From Candidatus Thorarchaeota archaeon (GTDB lineage Archaea; Asgardarchaeota; Thorarchaeia; Thorarchaeales; Thorarchaeaceae): a stretch of 13,795 nucleotides of DNA. The notes under the pieces were generated by a model. That model saw only the letters and a list, made by a program, of their open reading frames with translations. It did no database searches and was not told where the DNA came from. Below, piece by piece: positions 7,731 through 13,612 of the stretch (positions are counted from its first letter, which is position 1; each line of letters starts with the position of its first letter). A program made the position numbers and the translations under genes. The stretch is from contig JBHLQM010000074.1 in assembly GCA_048884785.1 (NCBI GenBank), positions 1 through 13,795 on the forward strand, read 5' to 3'.

Positions 7731-8605
7731 TGGACCTAATTCTCTACAGAGGATGTACAACCCCTGTTCGACTACCTGCCTACGAGGCTGCAACAATTGC
7801 GGTTCTTGAGAAACTCGGTGTGCATATCTATGAGATGTCAGATGCCAATTGCTGCGGAGCCCAGTATGTTGAATCCATGGATAAGATGGCATTTGCTGCA
7901 ATGAGCGGCAGAATACTTGCTCTCGCTGAGAGAGAAGAGAAGGACATTCTCGCCCTTTGTGGTGCTTGCTCCGGCTCCCTCAAGACAACCAAGCATTTGC
8001 TCGATACTGATATCCGGGCAAGGGATGAGGTCAATTCTCTATTGGCAGAGGAGGGTCTAAAGTATACAGGGAAAGTGCGAGTAAAGCACTTGCTGCAGGT
8101 ACTCGCCGAAGATATCGGTTTTGACGCAATCGAGCGTGCAGTTGTAAACCCGTACAAAGATGTGAAACTTGCGGCGCATTATGGATGCCACGTAACCCGA
8201 CCCTATGAAATTGTACAGGTAGATGATCCTGAGAACCCGACAATCCTTGATCGCCTTGTTGAGGCAGCTGGTGCCACTGCTGTCGATTATCCAGGAAAGA
8301 CAAGATGCTGCGGCGGACCGATGCTCGCAATGGATGAGGAAGTAGCAGCTCGAATTGGACTAGACAAAATTGACAATATTCTGGACTCCGGGGCAAATGG
8401 TGTAGTCACAGCATGTGTCTTCTGCGACATCCAGCTGACTCAGGTACAGTTCGGATCACAAGCTGGGAAGAGAACGAAGATACCTATAATGCCTATACCC
8501 CAGTTTCTGGGCCCAGCACTCGGAATAGATGAAGACATTCTTGGTATTGAGCTGAATAAAATCGATCCTCATCAGGTGATAAGTTGCAGTGGGGTGAATC
8601 AATGA
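7730..8605 (+). CDS. hdrB: Heterodisulfide reductase subunit B (two CCG domains)
   Basis: YRGC..NCCG..CGAC and HYGCH..CCGG..CVFC motifs. GTG start overlaps the hdrC TAG; SD GGAGGTG at 7715-7721. Confidence 0.95.
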   Translation: MDLILYRGCTTPVRLPAYEAATIAVLEKLGVHIYEMSDANCCGAQYVESMDKMAFAAMSGRILALAEREEKDILALCGACSGSLKTTKHLLDTDIRARDEVNSLLAEEGLKYTGKVRVKHLLQVLAEDIGFDAIERAVVNPYKDVKLAAHYGCHVTRPYEIVQVDDPENPTILDRLVEAAGATAVDYPGKTRCCGGPMLAMDEEVAARIGLDKIDNILDSGANGVVTACVFCDIQLTQVQFGSQAGKRTKIPIMPIPQFLGPALGIDEDILGIELNKIDPHQVISCSGVNQ

Positions 8606-10383
8606 CAGAAGGTCAGGTGGAGTCCGTTTCTGCAGAACTCAACGCTACGCCACGGATTGGCGTATTTGTATGTCACTGTGGTCATAATATTGCAGGTGTG
8701 GTAGATGTAGAAAAAGTTGCAGACTCTGCTAAGAAACTACCGAATGTTGCATTCGCGACTCATGAAATGTTCACCTGTTCTGATGCAGGGCAGGAGCTAA
8801 TTCGTGAGAAGATAAAGGAGTGCAATCTCAATCGTGTGGTTGTAGCTAGCTGTTCGCCTCGTATGCATGAACCAACATTTCGTCGAGTTGTTGAAGAAGC
8901 AGGGTTAAACAGATATCTCTTTGAACAGGTGAATCTTAGAGAGCATGTTTCTTGGTGCCACTCAAGGGAGCCAAACGCAGCCACACAGAAAGCATCTGAT
9001 CTCATTCGGATGGCAGTCGCGCGAGCTGCAGAACTCGAAGCATTGCCGATAAAGCGAGTACAAATAACTCCTAGAACACTTATTGTGGGTGGCGGAATCG
9101 CAGGCATCAGAGCAGCATTGGATGTCGCAGATCGTGGATTTGAAGCAGTCATTGTTGAACGTGATTCGGAATTAGGTGGCAATGTTCGAAAATGGTCGCA
9201 TATGTTCCCTGGTGAAAAACCAGGAAAGGAAGTTCTGAAGCCCTTAATTGAGCGCGCTCAGAAACACAAGAATATCAAAATCCTTACTGGCGCGCATGTC
9301 GAGAACTTTGAGGGGTATGTTGGAAACTTCGAAGCCCATATTGCGGTTCAAGGGCTCAAAAATACAAAGAAGTTTCAGGTTGGCACCGTCATCGTTGCCA
9401 CAGGATTTGAACCATTTACACCCCAAGGCCACTATGCCTATGGTGAAAGCCCTGATATCCTAACGCTAGCCGAGCTTCAATCGCTTCCAGATGAAGAGCA
9501 ATACCTTAGACGAAGTGACAGCAAGCCTGTAAAGAAAGTTGCCTTCATAGGCTGCGTAGGTTCTCGTGAGCCAGGAGTGAAGGGGCATGAGCATTGTTCG
9601 CGATACTGCTGTTCTGCTCTTGCCAAGACGGCTGCAATCATGAAGAAACGGCTCGATGAAGCTATTATCCTGTATCAAGATATTCGCACCTATGGAAAAG
9701 ACCACGAGGAATTCCAACGAATCGCTCGTGATAGGCATGTTATCTACTCAAAATTCCCAACCGAGAATAAACCCAAAGTAATTGTAAAGAATAAGAAGAT
9801 CAAACTATACTGGCATGATGTTTTCTCAGATTCACCACTTGATTTTGAGCCAGACCTCCTCATTCTTGCGTCTGCAATGACACCGCCGGATGGCATAGAA
9901 GAGGTTTCGCATGCGTTTGGCCTGACTCGTAGTGGTGATGGATTCTTCAATCCGGAGCACATCAAATTGGCTCCCGTATCCACTCATACAGCAGGAATCA
10001 TGATAGCTGGAGCAGCGCAGGCTGCAAAGAATGCATCTGAGGCTGTGATTGATGCAAGTGGGGCGGCAGCGAAAGTTGTTGGATTAATGGCAAAGGGAGC
10101 TGTGGAGATCGAGTCAACAGTGTCCAGAGTACTTCCCGAGCTTTGTTCGTCATGTGCTACATGCATTACAGCCTGTCCATATCGAGCTATTGAGTGGGAC
10201 GAATCACGTGACCCGCACATCGCACAGGTCCAGGAAGCAAAGTGCCACGGTTGCGGAACCTGTGCTGCAGCATGTCCTAGTAGTGCTATCATCATGTTGC
10301 ATTCCACAGATAGTCAAATCATGGCGATGGTGGAGGCCTACCTCTGCCCACCGCCCGAAACCACAGGAGGTGGTGTAAAGTGA
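8602..10383 (+). CDS. hdrA: Second HdrA-like subunit with N-terminal Fe-S domain, FAD domain and C-terminal ferredoxin, but no inserted ferredoxin
   Basis: RIGVFVCHCGHNIAG, FTCS, VVASCSPRMHEPTF, NLREHVSWCH, LIVGGGIAG, GCVGSR..CSRYCC, CSSCATCITACP and CHGCGTCAAACP. ATG 8602 overlaps the hdrB TGA (ATGA) after SD GGGGTGA. Confidence 0.93.
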   Translation: MTEGQVESVSAELNATPRIGVFVCHCGHNIAGVVDVEKVADSAKKLPNVAFATHEMFTCSDAGQELIREKIKECNLNRVVVASCSPRMHEPTFRRVVEEAGLNRYLFEQVNLREHVSWCHSREPNAATQKASDLIRMAVARAAELEALPIKRVQITPRTLIVGGGIAGIRAALDVADRGFEAVIVERDSELGGNVRKWSHMFPGEKPGKEVLKPLIERAQKHKNIKILTGAHVENFEGYVGNFEAHIAVQGLKNTKKFQVGTVIVATGFEPFTPQGHYAYGESPDILTLAELQSLPDEEQYLRRSDSKPVKKVAFIGCVGSREPGVKGHEHCSRYCCSALAKTAAIMKKRLDEAIILYQDIRTYGKDHEEFQRIARDRHVIYSKFPTENKPKVIVKNKKIKLYWHDVFSDSPLDFEPDLLILASAMTPPDGIEEVSHAFGLTRSGDGFFNPEHIKLAPVSTHTAGIMIAGAAQAAKNASEAVIDASGAAAKVVGLMAKGAVEIESTVSRVLPELCSSCATCITACPYRAIEWDESRDPHIAQVQEAKCHGCGTCAAACPSSAIIMLHSTDSQIMAMVEAYLCPPPETTGGGVK

Positions 10384-10823
10384 CGACAACGTCAAATGAA
10401 GTATCAGTCGAATTCGAGTGGGAACCGAGAATAGTTGCCTACTGCTGCAACTGGTGTTCCTATGCCGGAGCTGACCTAGCTGGAACAAGCAGAATACAAT
10501 ATCCGCCTAATGCTAGAATTCTCCGTGTGAACTGCACAGGGAGAATTGATCCTGAGTTCATCTTGGCTGCCCTTGATATGGGCGCAGATGGAGTTCTGGT
10601 TTCTGGGTGCCATCCAGGGGACTGTCACTATACTAGCGGCAATCTCAAGGCACGAGCAAGATGGGCACTCATGGAGAAGGTGATAGAGCAATCAGGTGTC
10701 AATCCAAAGCGAGTGCGTCTGCAATGGGCAAGCGCCTCAGAGGCACAAATCTTCGCTGATGGGGTTCGAACACTTGTCGACCAAGTTCGTGAGCTTGGAC
10801 CAATTGAGAGGGAGTGGCGATGA
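10380..10823 (+). CDS. mvhD: F420-non-reducing hydrogenase [2Fe-2S] subunit D (all-cysteine form)
   Basis: IVAYCCNWCSYAGADLAGTSRIQYP, RVNCTGRIDP, GADGVLVSGCHPGDCHY, WASASEA. GTGA overlap with the hdrA2 stop. Confidence 0.96.
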   Translation: MTTTSNEVSVEFEWEPRIVAYCCNWCSYAGADLAGTSRIQYPPNARILRVNCTGRIDPEFILAALDMGADGVLVSGCHPGDCHYTSGNLKARARWALMEKVIEQSGVNPKRVRLQWASASEAQIFADGVRTLVDQVRELGPIEREWR

Positions 10824-11055: not shown

Positions 11056-11991
11056 ATGGGAGATCCTGTACCTGTTGCAATGGCTCAAGGTTCCTCATGC
11101 TGGGGATGTTTCCAAAGCCTTATTGATATCCACCTCGGACTCGCGGATGTTTTGCCGAAGTTGGATATTAAGTACTGGCAAGCTGTTGTAGACTTCAAAC
11201 TGCATCATCTTGAGGGTTATGAAGACAAGTCTATTGTTGTTGGATTCTTTGAGGGTATGGCAAGAACCGAGGAGGATATCCATCTTCTAAAGACCATGCG
11301 CAATAAGTGTCAGATTCTGATAGCCTATGGGTCTTGTTCCTGCTTCGGAGGGATTCCAACCTTGGCCAACCTCTCTGACATTGAGGAGTGCTACGATGTG
11401 AAATATCGTGAAAACAAGACATTCAGTGGCGGAAAGGTTCCATCTGAGAATATTCCAAAGATAGAAACAGTGGTCAGACCGAATTCCGACTTTGTCAACT
11501 TTGATATTTACCTACCCGGATGTCCGCCGACTCCAAAACTCATTGCGACGGCAGTGACATCTTTACTTGAAGGAAAAGAACTTGAACTTCCACCTCATAC
11601 AGTCTGTCACTACTGCAAGAGAGAGAAGAAGGAGACCCCGATTGACAACATCCTGCGTCCATTTCAGGGCATAGCTGACCCAGAACGATGCCTGCTAGAG
11701 CAAGGATACATTTGTGTGGGGTCAGCAACGTGGGGTTTGTGCGAAGGCCAGTGTGTCAATAAGGGTGCAACCTGCCGAGGTTGCTTTGGACCTCCACCTC
11801 CTATAATGGCTGACCATGGGGCAGCTTCTATCTCAATGCTGGGGACATATGCCCCTATTGAACCAGAAAAGCTTGTTGAGCAAGTCAAAGATCCTCTTGG
11901 TACTTTCTATCGTTTTGACTATGGAACAAGTCACCTCAATAGAATACGTATCAGGAGGGAAGATATCGTGAGACCCAGGGAGGTACACTAA
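11056..11991 (+). CDS. mvhG: Group 3c [NiFe(Se)]-hydrogenase small subunit (MvhG/VhuG)
   Basis: SSCWGC, EG..R, AYGSCSCFGGIP, YLPGCPP, VCHYCKR, CLLEQGYICVG..C...C..CRGCFG; SD GGAGG upstream. Confidence 0.94.
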   Translation: MGDPVPVAMAQGSSCWGCFQSLIDIHLGLADVLPKLDIKYWQAVVDFKLHHLEGYEDKSIVVGFFEGMARTEEDIHLLKTMRNKCQILIAYGSCSCFGGIPTLANLSDIEECYDVKYRENKTFSGGKVPSENIPKIETVVRPNSDFVNFDIYLPGCPPTPKLIATAVTSLLEGKELELPPHTVCHYCKREKKETPIDNILRPFQGIADPERCLLEQGYICVGSATWGLCEGQCVNKGATCRGCFGPPPPIMADHGAASISMLGTYAPIEPEKLVEQVKDPLGTFYRFDYGTSHLNRIRIRREDIVRPREVH

Positions 11992-13307
11992 TGACGAATG
12001 ATAAGACAATTCGAATTGACCCTGTAACTCGACTTGAAGGCCATGGAGCTCTAACCATTAAACTCAGTAAGGACAACAAAGTCAAAGATATCCAATATAA
12101 TGTGGGCTCTACAAGATTCTTTGAGAAGTTCCTAACTGGGCGACCAATGGAGGAAGCTCCCCGTATTGCCCCCAGGATTTGTGGAATCTGTCCTATTCCC
12201 CACCATCTGGCATCAATCAAAGCAGTTGAAGCGGCTTGGGATGTAAAACCACCACCAGCCGCAATTAAGCTGCGACGGTTGATGATTGAAGCCAAACAAC
12301 TCTCTTCACATGCAATTCATTTCTATGCCCTTGCGGCTCCTGACTTTGTATTTGGCCCGTTTGCCAATCCAGCTGTCAGAAATGTTGCGGCTGTTTTGAA
12401 GCACTTGCCAGATGTGACAGTTCAAGCCATCAAGATCATGGAGTTTGGACAAGAGCTCATTCGTGATATTGGTGCAAAATCTGTGCATCCTGTCACCGGA
12501 ATTCCGGGCGGAATGCTGAATACACTAAAGGAAGAGGAGCGTGACAAATGGCTAAAGCAAGTCCCTGAGATGCTTGAAAATGTCAACAAAACCGTAGAGC
12601 TTGCTAAGACTGTGGTCAACGCATATCTAGATGTCATAACGAAAGTTGCTGTTACACCTACATACTATATTGGTCTTACTAACAATGGCACCTTAGATAT
12701 TTATGATGGAAATGTGCGTGTGATGGACCCGGACGGCAAGATTGTTGCTGACTTTGAGCCAAAAGACTACACTAAGTACTACGGAGAACACATTCCAAAG
12801 CATGCATATGCAACCCACATTTACTTCAAACCAGCAGGATATCCTGAAGGAATTTGGAGAGCAAACACACTTGCTCGATGCAATGTTGCAGATAAGATGG
12901 CTACACCATTAGCAGATGCAGCTTTGAAGGAAATGCGGGACCTTGTGGGTCGGCCTTCACATCACACGTTTGTCTACCACTACGCACGTATTGTAGAGCT
13001 CGTGCAAGCCGCAGAGTGGATTAAGACACTACTGGAAGACCCTGACATTGTCAGTACTGATGTAAAGCTGTCAGATGTTGAACCAAAGGCTGGAGATGGT
13101 GTAGGTATTGTAGAGGCTCCACGAGGCACTTTGCTACACAATTATACAAGTGATGAGAAAGGTATGCTTGTGCATGCAAACCTCATCGTTGCTACAAATA
13201 ACAACATCGCTGGGATAGAGAAGTCTCTCATGACGGCAGCGAAACAGATCTTCGAGGATAAGGCTCTCGATAGTCTGAAACTACCGGAACCACTGGTTAA
13301 GACCTAG
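11991..13307 (+). CDS. vhuA: Group 3c hydrogenase large subunit, N-terminal chain (VhuA-type, lacks the C-terminal L2 motif)
   Basis: IDPVTRLEGH, RFFEKFLTGRP, L1 motif PRICGICPIPH, VHPV..PGG, EAPRGTLLHNY, NLIVATNNN. It ends at TAG without DPCxxCxxH. Confidence 0.93.
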   Translation: MTNDKTIRIDPVTRLEGHGALTIKLSKDNKVKDIQYNVGSTRFFEKFLTGRPMEEAPRIAPRICGICPIPHHLASIKAVEAAWDVKPPPAAIKLRRLMIEAKQLSSHAIHFYALAAPDFVFGPFANPAVRNVAAVLKHLPDVTVQAIKIMEFGQELIRDIGAKSVHPVTGIPGGMLNTLKEEERDKWLKQVPEMLENVNKTVELAKTVVNAYLDVITKVAVTPTYYIGLTNNGTLDIYDGNVRVMDPDGKIVADFEPKDYTKYYGEHIPKHAYATHIYFKPAGYPEGIWRANTLARCNVADKMATPLADAALKEMRDLVGRPSHHTFVYHYARIVELVQAAEWIKTLLEDPDIVSTDVKLSDVEPKAGDGVGIVEAPRGTLLHNYTSDEKGMLVHANLIVATNNNIAGIEKSLMTAAKQIFEDKALDSLKLPEPLVKT

Positions 13308-13318
13308 GAGATGAAGTG

Positions 13319-13483
13319 ATGACCGAAGAAATACCCGAAGGCGTACTCAACCTCATTGAGATGGTCGTACGCTGTTATGACTGCTGACTATCATGTGCGG
13401 CTCACATGGTTGTCGTTCGTGAGGATGACGATGGTGAACTGCACGAGATAGCCAGGAAGGATCTAGTGCTGGGCGGCGCATGA
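13319..13483 (+). CDS. vhuU: Selenocysteine-containing hydrogenase peptide VhuU (54 aa; Sec TGA at 13385-13387)
   Basis: MTEEIPEGVLNLIEMVVRCYDC-U-LSCAAHMVVVREDDDGELHEIARKDLVLGGA*. It has its own SD (AGGAG, 13306-13310). The TGA sits at the first Cys position of the L2 motif (RxxDPCxxCxxH) that vhuA lacks, homology continues past the TGA, and a SECIS follows. Confidence 0.95.
13385..13415 (+). promoter_or_regulatory. In-CDS hairpin starting on the Sec codon (SRE-like / bacterial-SECIS-like)
   Basis: UGACUAUCAUGUG-[CGGCU]-CACAUGGUUGUCG: 12 of 13 positions pair (two G-U pairs, one U-U mismatch). Confidence 0.65.
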
Positions 13484-13538
13484 AGGTCCAACCGAAACTC
13501 GGGTTGGACTGGACGACCCCGCAAGGGTCGCCCGCACT
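13465..13538 (+). promoter_or_regulatory. Eukaryote-type SECIS element
   Basis: AUGA (13480-83), N11, AA (13495-96), N15, GA (13512-13). Helix II GGUCCAACC/GGUUGGACU; helix I AGUGC-U-GGGC/GCCCGCACU; extra hairpin GACCC-CGCAA-GGGUC. Confidence 0.85.
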
Positions 13539-13546
13539 CTCCTTCA

Positions 13547-13558
13547 TTCTTTCTTTTT
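13547..13558 (+). terminator. Pyrimidine/oligo-U tract, likely archaeal terminator of the operon
   Basis: TTCTTTCTTTTT immediately after the SECIS and before a convergent gene. Confidence 0.55.
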
Positions 13559-13612
13559 GAATTCACTTGTCGAAAGTGTAAAACGTATTCTTGAGTGGTT
13601 CATGAAACACCT

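Follow-up and report, generated by a model that had tools for sequence, protein, structure and literature searches.

A conserved stem-loop at the selenocysteine codon of Thorarchaeota vhuU as a candidate SRE-like accessory recoding element

PYLIS, a hairpin located 3' of the UAG-pyrrolysine codon of Methanosarcina mtmB, is thought to be an efficiency enhancer and not an essential signal. In the eukaryotic SELENON mRNA, the SRE has a spacing of 6 nt. The work of Howard et al. from 2005 and 2007 reportedly deals with this SRE and with those of some other selenoprotein mRNAs. SREs have been described for eukaryotes (review PMC8704476). The Asgard archaea are used to trace the origin of the eukaryotic selenocysteine (Sec) system, and hitherto only 3'-UTR SECIS-like elements have been described in them: in their accessible portions, Huang 2024 (PMC11227280) and a 2026 review (PMC13188914) describe Asgard elements in the 3'-UTR only, and that of Mariotti 2016 (PMC4989117), in which RNAz was applied to the vhuU CDS +/-200 nt, reports lokiSECIS alone. 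An earlier note on the DNA studied here had taken coding-region structures near Sec codons to be established in Lokiarchaeota, a statement that finds no backing in the same portion of Mariotti 2016 (PMC4989117), where nothing beyond lokiSECIS is reported; the sequence set of that study is Loki-like, and the present analysis likewise finds no hairpin in such genes. As far as the accessible portions of the literature searched extend, no description of the long stem-loop presented below was found for archaea.

The window, a 13,795-nt stretch from a Candidatus Thorarchaeota archaeon (assembly GCA_048884785.1, contig JBHLQM010000074.1), carries an operon of the hdr/mvh type in which an HdrA-like fusion, hdrC, hdrB, hdrA, mvhD, a small ORF, a small subunit and vhuA are followed by vhuU (Table 1). 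The in-frame UGA of vhuU lies in the motif RCYDC-U-LSCAAH, and a single in-frame TGA is found in the vhuU homologues of 52 of the 61 related genomes. The VhuD (10380-10823) and HdrA (8584-10383) of the window have Cys where the Loki and Methanococcales homologues carry Sec. Since both are Cys versions, vhuU is the only Sec gene of the operon that its SECIS serves; selD is the sole further Sec gene found in the genome. The vhuU sequences were collected from the 61 related genomes together with additional paralogues and named records, and were aligned as 46 sequences (for the short-hairpin test and for the gene plus UTR) and as 55 distinct Thorarchaeota-family sequences (for the long-hairpin test). 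One copy, L008 (G002:C143), has an unrelated N-terminal half without a start codon and YHC-U for YDC-U; it retains the hairpin and the SECIS, and may reflect a chimeric assembly or a gene in decay.

Table 1 Features at the 3' end of the vhuA-vhuU region of the window
Feature	Coordinates	Strand	Remarks
vhuA	11991-13307		directly precedes vhuU
vhuU	13319-13483	+	54 codons; Sec UGA = codon 23; stop UGA 13481-13483; from translation
Sec UGA of vhuU	13385-13387	+	paired within the long hairpin's basal stem
Whole conserved stem-loop	13384-13455	+	72 nt, -36.1 kcal/mol
Lower stem, 5' strand	13384-13392	+	CUG.CUAUC, includes the UGA; partner 13447-13455
Lower stem, 3' strand	13447-13455	+	GAUAG.CAG; codons E-I-A-R of the C-terminal extension
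Middle helix, 5' strand	13394-13400	+	UGUGCGG; begins 6 nt past the UGA; partner 13439-13445
Middle helix, 3' strand	13439-13445	+	CUGCACG; partner 13394-13400
Upper part	13402-13437	+	UCAC/GUGA 13402-05 x 13434-37; 10-bp apical stem 13409-18 x 13423-32; loop GUGA 13419-22
SECIS domain	13456-13545	+	adjoins the hairpin end at 13455
Short hairpin	13385-13415	+	alternative pairing confined to one genus; not expected to form in the mRNA context

The earlier note had drawn attention to a hairpin of 13 positions with a CGGCU loop that is based on the UGA itself, and the hairpin is there as described (13385-13397 x 13403-13415, loop 13398-13402): 12 of its 13 positions are paired, two of them as G.U, and one is a U.U mismatch. 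Its MFE is -12.2 kcal/mol, compared with -5.8 +/- 1.9 kcal/mol in dinucleotide shuffles (z = -3.3, 0/200), and this energy is reached by about 0.3% of random 31-nt windows of the genome and at 14 places on the + strand of the window. Against peptide-keeping recodings that follow the codon usage of the genome its z is -2.4, and merely 2.5% of them fold equally well, so that the codon-resampled controls proposed in the earlier note bring no refutation; its other proposed comparison, between Cys and Sec homologues, also speaks for the hairpin, the Cys homologue lacking it (-2.6 to -3.2 kcal/mol). The short hairpin is moderately unusual, not striking. It is retained in nine copies only, all from one genus (the "96-nt type", with protein identities of 87-98%), among which the few changes in the stem are disruptive or neutral/wobble, and it is missing from all other Sec vhuU copies of the alignments. 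The same-genus paralogues L033-L035 encode the identical LSCAAHMV through UCC UGC GCC GCU CAU and have lost it. Over the 46 aligned sequences, its pairs are formed in 71.0% of cells versus 71.1% after shuffling, its core pairs are broken in 30-34 sequences and it shows no covariation. When vhuU is folded together with its 3' UTR, the pair probability of the short hairpin is about 0 and that of the 72-nt hairpin 0.89-1.0; both arms of the former fall within the 5' half of the latter. Conservation among the Sec homologues and folding in context rule the short hairpin out as the relevant fold, and the predicted structures indicate that it arises incidentally, as another way of pairing bases in the 5' half of the long stem-loop.

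The MFE structure of the region 13300-13560 contains this 72-nt stem-loop, not the short hairpin. Alone, the stem-loop has a z of -5.8 against dinucleotide shuffles. Its lower stem consists of two helices, CUG/CAG (13384-86 x 13453-55) and CUAUC/GAUAG (13388-92 x 13447-51), and the sub-hairpin 13394-13445, made up of the middle helix and the apical stem, accounts for about -26 kcal/mol. Compared with most relatives, the window's type has 12 extra nt inserted at the tip, which lengthen the apical stem. A covariance model of the stem-loop (R1) finds this site as its only match in the genome, and Rfam, searched with E up to 10, gives no match at the hairpin or at the SECIS.

Nearly all Sec vhuU of the Thorarchaeota family, of either length type, have this architecture as their MFE structure. 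Among the approximately 45 family Sec copies compared with peptide-keeping recodings, z ranges from -3.8 to -7.3, except for three copies at -2.7 to -2.8, in a recoding model that applies the codon usage of the window genome to all family members and GC3-weighted usage to the Loki-type loci, both of which are approximations. For comparison, the 5' half of vhuU (66 nt) has a mean z of -1.8 +/- 1.0 (56 copies); a GCGUAC/GUACGC stem is observed in this half of the window gene (13340-13373). In the 55 family sequences, the long-hairpin pairs are formed in 90.7% of cells versus 86.9% after shuffling (0/500), and sliding the partners by 1-3 columns drops this pairing to 33-52%. The six consensus pairs of the middle helix are formed in all 55 sequences, bar one G.G mismatch, and three of them covary (CG45/UA10; GU24/CG16/GC15; CG41/GU9/UA3/UG2), changing among standard pairs with the unpaired state never seen. 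Some of these changes tie a synonymous site in one arm to a replacement in the other: from UGC..CGC to UGU..CAC, the synonymous Cys codons UGC/UGU are coupled to a replacement of Arg (CGC) by His (CAC), and from GGC..GGY to GCC..GGG, a four-fold degenerate Gly site is coupled to a replacement of Gly (GGC) by Ala (GCC). On a tree built from flanking sequence, parts of which are weakly resolved, the three covarying pairs have changed state at least 4, 9 and 7 times.

From the trimmed family alignment, RNAalifold recovers the middle helix unaided and no other helix; the lower and apical stems thus rest on pairing frequency and thermodynamics. The lower stem is paired in 82-95% of the 55 sequences over CUAUC/GAUAG (columns 10-14 x 69-73) and in 64-91% over the four pairs that include C-UGA (columns 6-9 x 74-77). 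It is nearly invariant where paired, classical covariation being absent among these 55 sequences, and in L006, L031 and L032 it is re-paired in an alternative register. The conservation of the rare codons Leu CUA and Ile AUA is best understood by their pairing with each other, but the 3' arm also encodes the conserved peptide GREI[VA]RK, and part of the nucleotide conservation could therefore be at the protein level. For the lower and apical stems, then, the alignments provide support of one kind, conserved pairing potential and not covariation. When RNAalifold was given the gene plus UTR (46 sequences), the long hairpin was not among the structures returned, which were the SECIS, a small GCAA-type hairpin and a helix of Val/Asp codons. 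The latter was discarded as a covarying helix, its double changes numbering 7 where 7.0 are expected under independence.

The stem-loop is associated with Sec. It is absent from three Cys-type vhuU, one within the family (L029) and two from other Asgard lineages, and from seven fused Cys-type hydrogenase large subunits, although this comparison draws on few independent Sec-to-Cys events, a single one of them within the family. That event is represented by L029, the sole Cys-type vhuU of the family, which has a z of +1.0 and has lost the SECIS too. Candidate Sec-type fused hydrogenases of the family were also considered, but the five large subunits flagged with one TGA and a sixth flagged with TGA and TAG are all Cys-type, the flagged codons lying at or past the gene end. 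The long stem-loop is likewise absent from the Loki-type Sec vhuU (z from +0.1 to -1.75) and from more distant Asgard copies, and no structure was found at the selD UGA of the window's genome. These absences suggest that it is a lineage- and gene-specific accessory and not a general need of Sec decoding. One of the distant Asgard Sec vhuU, L050 (G058:C1), lacks the family hairpin and has another 10-bp stem, AUCUCCUUGU/ACAAGGAGAU, that begins about 19 nt past the UGA (z = -2.65).

In every relative folded, 0-3 nt separate the 3' end of the stem-loop from the helix that closes the SECIS domain. In the window, this closing helix is GAAGGA/UCCUUC (13456-61 x 13540-45), and the relatives show matching changes in it. 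The AUGA core (13480-83) contains the stop codon of vhuU and matches the published lokiSECIS; the stem above it (13485-93 x 13502-10) has undergone many compensatory changes. Since hairpin and SECIS domain adjoin, almost all the mRNA 3' of the Sec codon lies in conserved helices. The long helices that close the SECIS join the last ~25 nt of the ORF to the 3' UTR (13456-13461 x 13540-13545 and 13465-13477 x 13527-13538), with matching changes in relatives such as GAGAGAGCU/AGCUCUC in L012 and AAGAAAGGAG/CUCUUUUCUU in L021; as predicted, they enlarge the published SECIS core considerably, and no description of them was found in the accessible portions of the literature on Asgard SECIS elements. 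3' of the core, a small hairpin ACCC/GGGU (13516-19 x 13525-28), whose closing pair covaries (AU20/GC11/GU6/CG4), competes with the helix that the MFE draws there.

The immediate context of the UGA is also nearly uniform. Of 70 distinct Sec vhuU, 65 have CUA as the codon that follows it (13385-13390 and the homologous sites in L001-L114) and the other five have CUU or CUC, so that the base after the UGA is always C, including in low-GC Loki-type genes without the hairpin. CUA makes up 16% of the Leu codons of the window's genome, and the codons after the Cys site of the three Cys-type vhuU are UUA, UUA and CUG. UGA-C and UGA-CUA are leaky contexts for termination by eRF1-type factors, and the CUA may be a separate context signal. 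Upstream, among the 55 family copies in which the stop codon of vhuA (13305-13307 and homologous sites) can be called, 53 have UAG or UAA and two have UGA, a count that overstates independence because the copies are related, whereas UGA makes up 35% of stops genome-wide. The avoidance of UGA at this site suggests that a UGA is at risk as soon as it lies near the SECIS, which weakens the idea of the earlier note that the hairpin serves to single out the UGA to be recoded; it probably does not.

What might such a structure do? When a UGA occupies the A site, the next ~8-12 nt lie inside the ribosome, a figure that comes from bacterial footprint and helicase data and is assumed here. The 6-nt spacer corresponds to the spacing of known downstream recoding stimulators. 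By the same footprints, the entire 5' arm of the short hairpin would be within the ribosome with the UGA in the A site, so that the stalling which the earlier note ascribed to it appears poorly placed. In the long stem-loop, the entry of the UGA into the A site would melt the lower stem, and the GC-rich middle helix together with the apical stem (~-26 kcal/mol) would then stand at the mRNA entrance, 6 nt past the UGA. A hairpin at the entrance could delay the ribosome on the UGA and hold the SECIS domain, ~10 nt past the hairpin foot, near the decoding site; both effects would favor EFSec and Sec-tRNA over the release factor. We infer an effect on Sec insertion or termination from the position of the stem-loop and its association with Sec. 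With a little better than even confidence, we suggest that the 72-nt stem-loop, at whose foot the SECIS domain begins, assists recoding as an accessory element in the manner of the eukaryotic SRE. That vhuU carries a second recoding signal, as the earlier note had proposed, holds insofar as there is a coding-region structure starting on the UGA besides the 3'-UTR SECIS, but the element concerned is the 72-nt stem-loop. A more specific proposal, to which we give somewhat less than even credence, is that Sec decoding in Thorarchaeota vhuU uses a two-part module of ~160 nt, in which an SRE-like stem-loop with the UGA at its foot stands directly on an extended eukaryote-like SECIS domain.

Several other explanations have to be weighed. 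The most skeptical one holds that no structure is selected and that the pairing simply follows from the encoded peptide or from common descent. The compared sequences are indeed related to one another, the Val codon GUC and the Asp codon GAC can pair with each other, and covariation in the apical stem does not exceed what independence predicts; yet z values of about -4 to -7 against peptide-keeping recodings, covariation that involves a four-fold degenerate site and spans amino-acid changes, and the repeated state changes on the tree make this explanation extremely improbable. On this evidence, the comparison of sequences shows the predicted 72-nt structure to be under RNA-level selection in the Thorarchaeota-family Sec vhuU. 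Nor does it seem credible, except at a very low probability, that the short hairpin is itself functional, perhaps as a kinetic intermediate or by switching with the long one. It is real, stable alone and better than 97.5% of synonymous recodings, and the Cys homologue reaches just -2.6 to -3.2 kcal/mol at the same site; but it occurs in nine near-identical copies without covariation, disappears from same-genus paralogues with the same peptide, has a pair probability of about 0 in the mRNA context and would have its 5' arm within the ribosome during UGA decoding, while the long hairpin already fixes all but one of its synonymous sites. The comparative data appear to have largely refuted it.

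The remaining alternatives accept the long stem-loop and differ on its role. Its function could be architectural only: by folding away 70 nt between UGA and SECIS, without any pausing, it would allow the SECIS domain, whose closing helices lie in the last ORF codons, to refold after each ribosome and stay near the UGA. The close abutment of the two domains in every relative folded, the compensatory changes in the closing helix and the near absence of unpaired mRNA 3' of the UGA all agree with such a role. Nevertheless, in the Loki-type vhuU, which do without the hairpin, UGA and stop are likewise 84 nt apart and AUGA overlaps the stop in the same way, and the best-conserved helix is the one at the classical spacing of recoding stimulators, not the basal one, so that a purely architectural role is judged rather unlikely. 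We favor an SRE-like enhancer, which possibly acts as a tether too, and regard the architectural role as its main rival. A role unrelated to Sec is less probable still: the structure might protect the 3' end of the mRNA, or slow the translation of the C-terminal extension and thereby aid nickel insertion or assembly with VhuA. In [NiFe]-hydrogenases, the C-terminal extension that follows a conserved His is removed at maturation. The 3' arm encodes the extension that follows this His, and the 5' half of vhuU has a mild excess of structure as well; however, the Cys-type vhuU and the fused Cys-type large subunits have the same maturation need and no stem-loop, and the UGA sits exactly at the foot of the stem. 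Finally, the hairpin could be a bacterial-type SECIS bound directly by the Sec elongation factor, since it stands immediately 3' of the UGA, has a GUGA apical loop in the window and places this loop 22-31 nt away in the 55 copies, compared with the 16-37 nt of the bacterial SECIS model given in the accessible portion of the 2026 review (PMC13188914). Yet the loop sequences vary freely, with a G in the first two positions in just 19 of the 55 copies, and the EFSec of the genome (475 aa) is of the archaeal type with GTP_EFTU, D2 and aSelB_III domains; the SelB wing domain PF09107 was not found in the genome (91% complete), the E. coli control being positive. This leaves a bacterial-type SECIS very improbable, and the preference of the earlier note for an SRE-like role over SelB binding appears well founded, given an EFSec without the SelB wing domains and the varying loops.

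If the SRE-like enhancer is the correct interpretation, SRE-type helpers would not be confined to eukaryotes. The ~160 nt would also offer a compact and clearly delimited target for testing how a distant archaeal SECIS reaches the ribosome, for instance in a Methanococcus reporter system, and the stem-loop provides annotation with a strong extra mark of Sec-type vhuU in Thorarchaeota genomes, in which gene prediction truncates vhuU at the UGA.

Among the known systems, lokiSECIS and the Asgard eSECIS-like elements belong to the same gene and the same mRNA and are the neighbors of the hairpin. They are defined by an AUGA..GA(AA) core, an upper stem of 7-15 bp, an A-rich loop and a position in the 3'-UTR, all of which are found at 13480-13513 and none in the hairpin, which is located in the ORF and has neither the AUGA..GA kink-turn core nor an A-rich loop. 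With PYLIS, the hairpin shares the character of an archaeal coding-region stem-loop adjoining a recoded stop codon, but the codon, the amino acid and the machinery differ and there is no homology. Like a bacterial SECIS, it is a hairpin that follows the UGA directly within the coding region and holds its apical loop at a similar distance from that codon; unlike it, the vhuU hairpin has no conserved loop G/U or bulged U, and its organism has an EFSec without SECIS-binding winged-helix domains and a separate eukaryote-like SECIS. The eukaryotic SRE differs in its gene family, the gene here encoding a hydrogenase subunit, and no sequence relationship is seen: Rfam, with E up to 10, gives no match that would indicate homology to the SELENON or SELENOT elements. 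In vhuU, moreover, the basal stem takes in the UGA itself, and the SECIS domain follows directly on the hairpin. The likeness to the SRE lies in the arrangement: a stem-loop in the ORF beside the Sec UGA, with a stable helix that begins a few nucleotides 3' of this codon after a short spacer, conserved across species against synonymous drift and coexisting with a separate SECIS in the 3'-UTR. Should the proposed function hold, vhuU would be an archaeal precedent for the eukaryotic combination of SRE and SECIS, and in function would recall the bacterial arrangement, where the SECIS lies next to the UGA.
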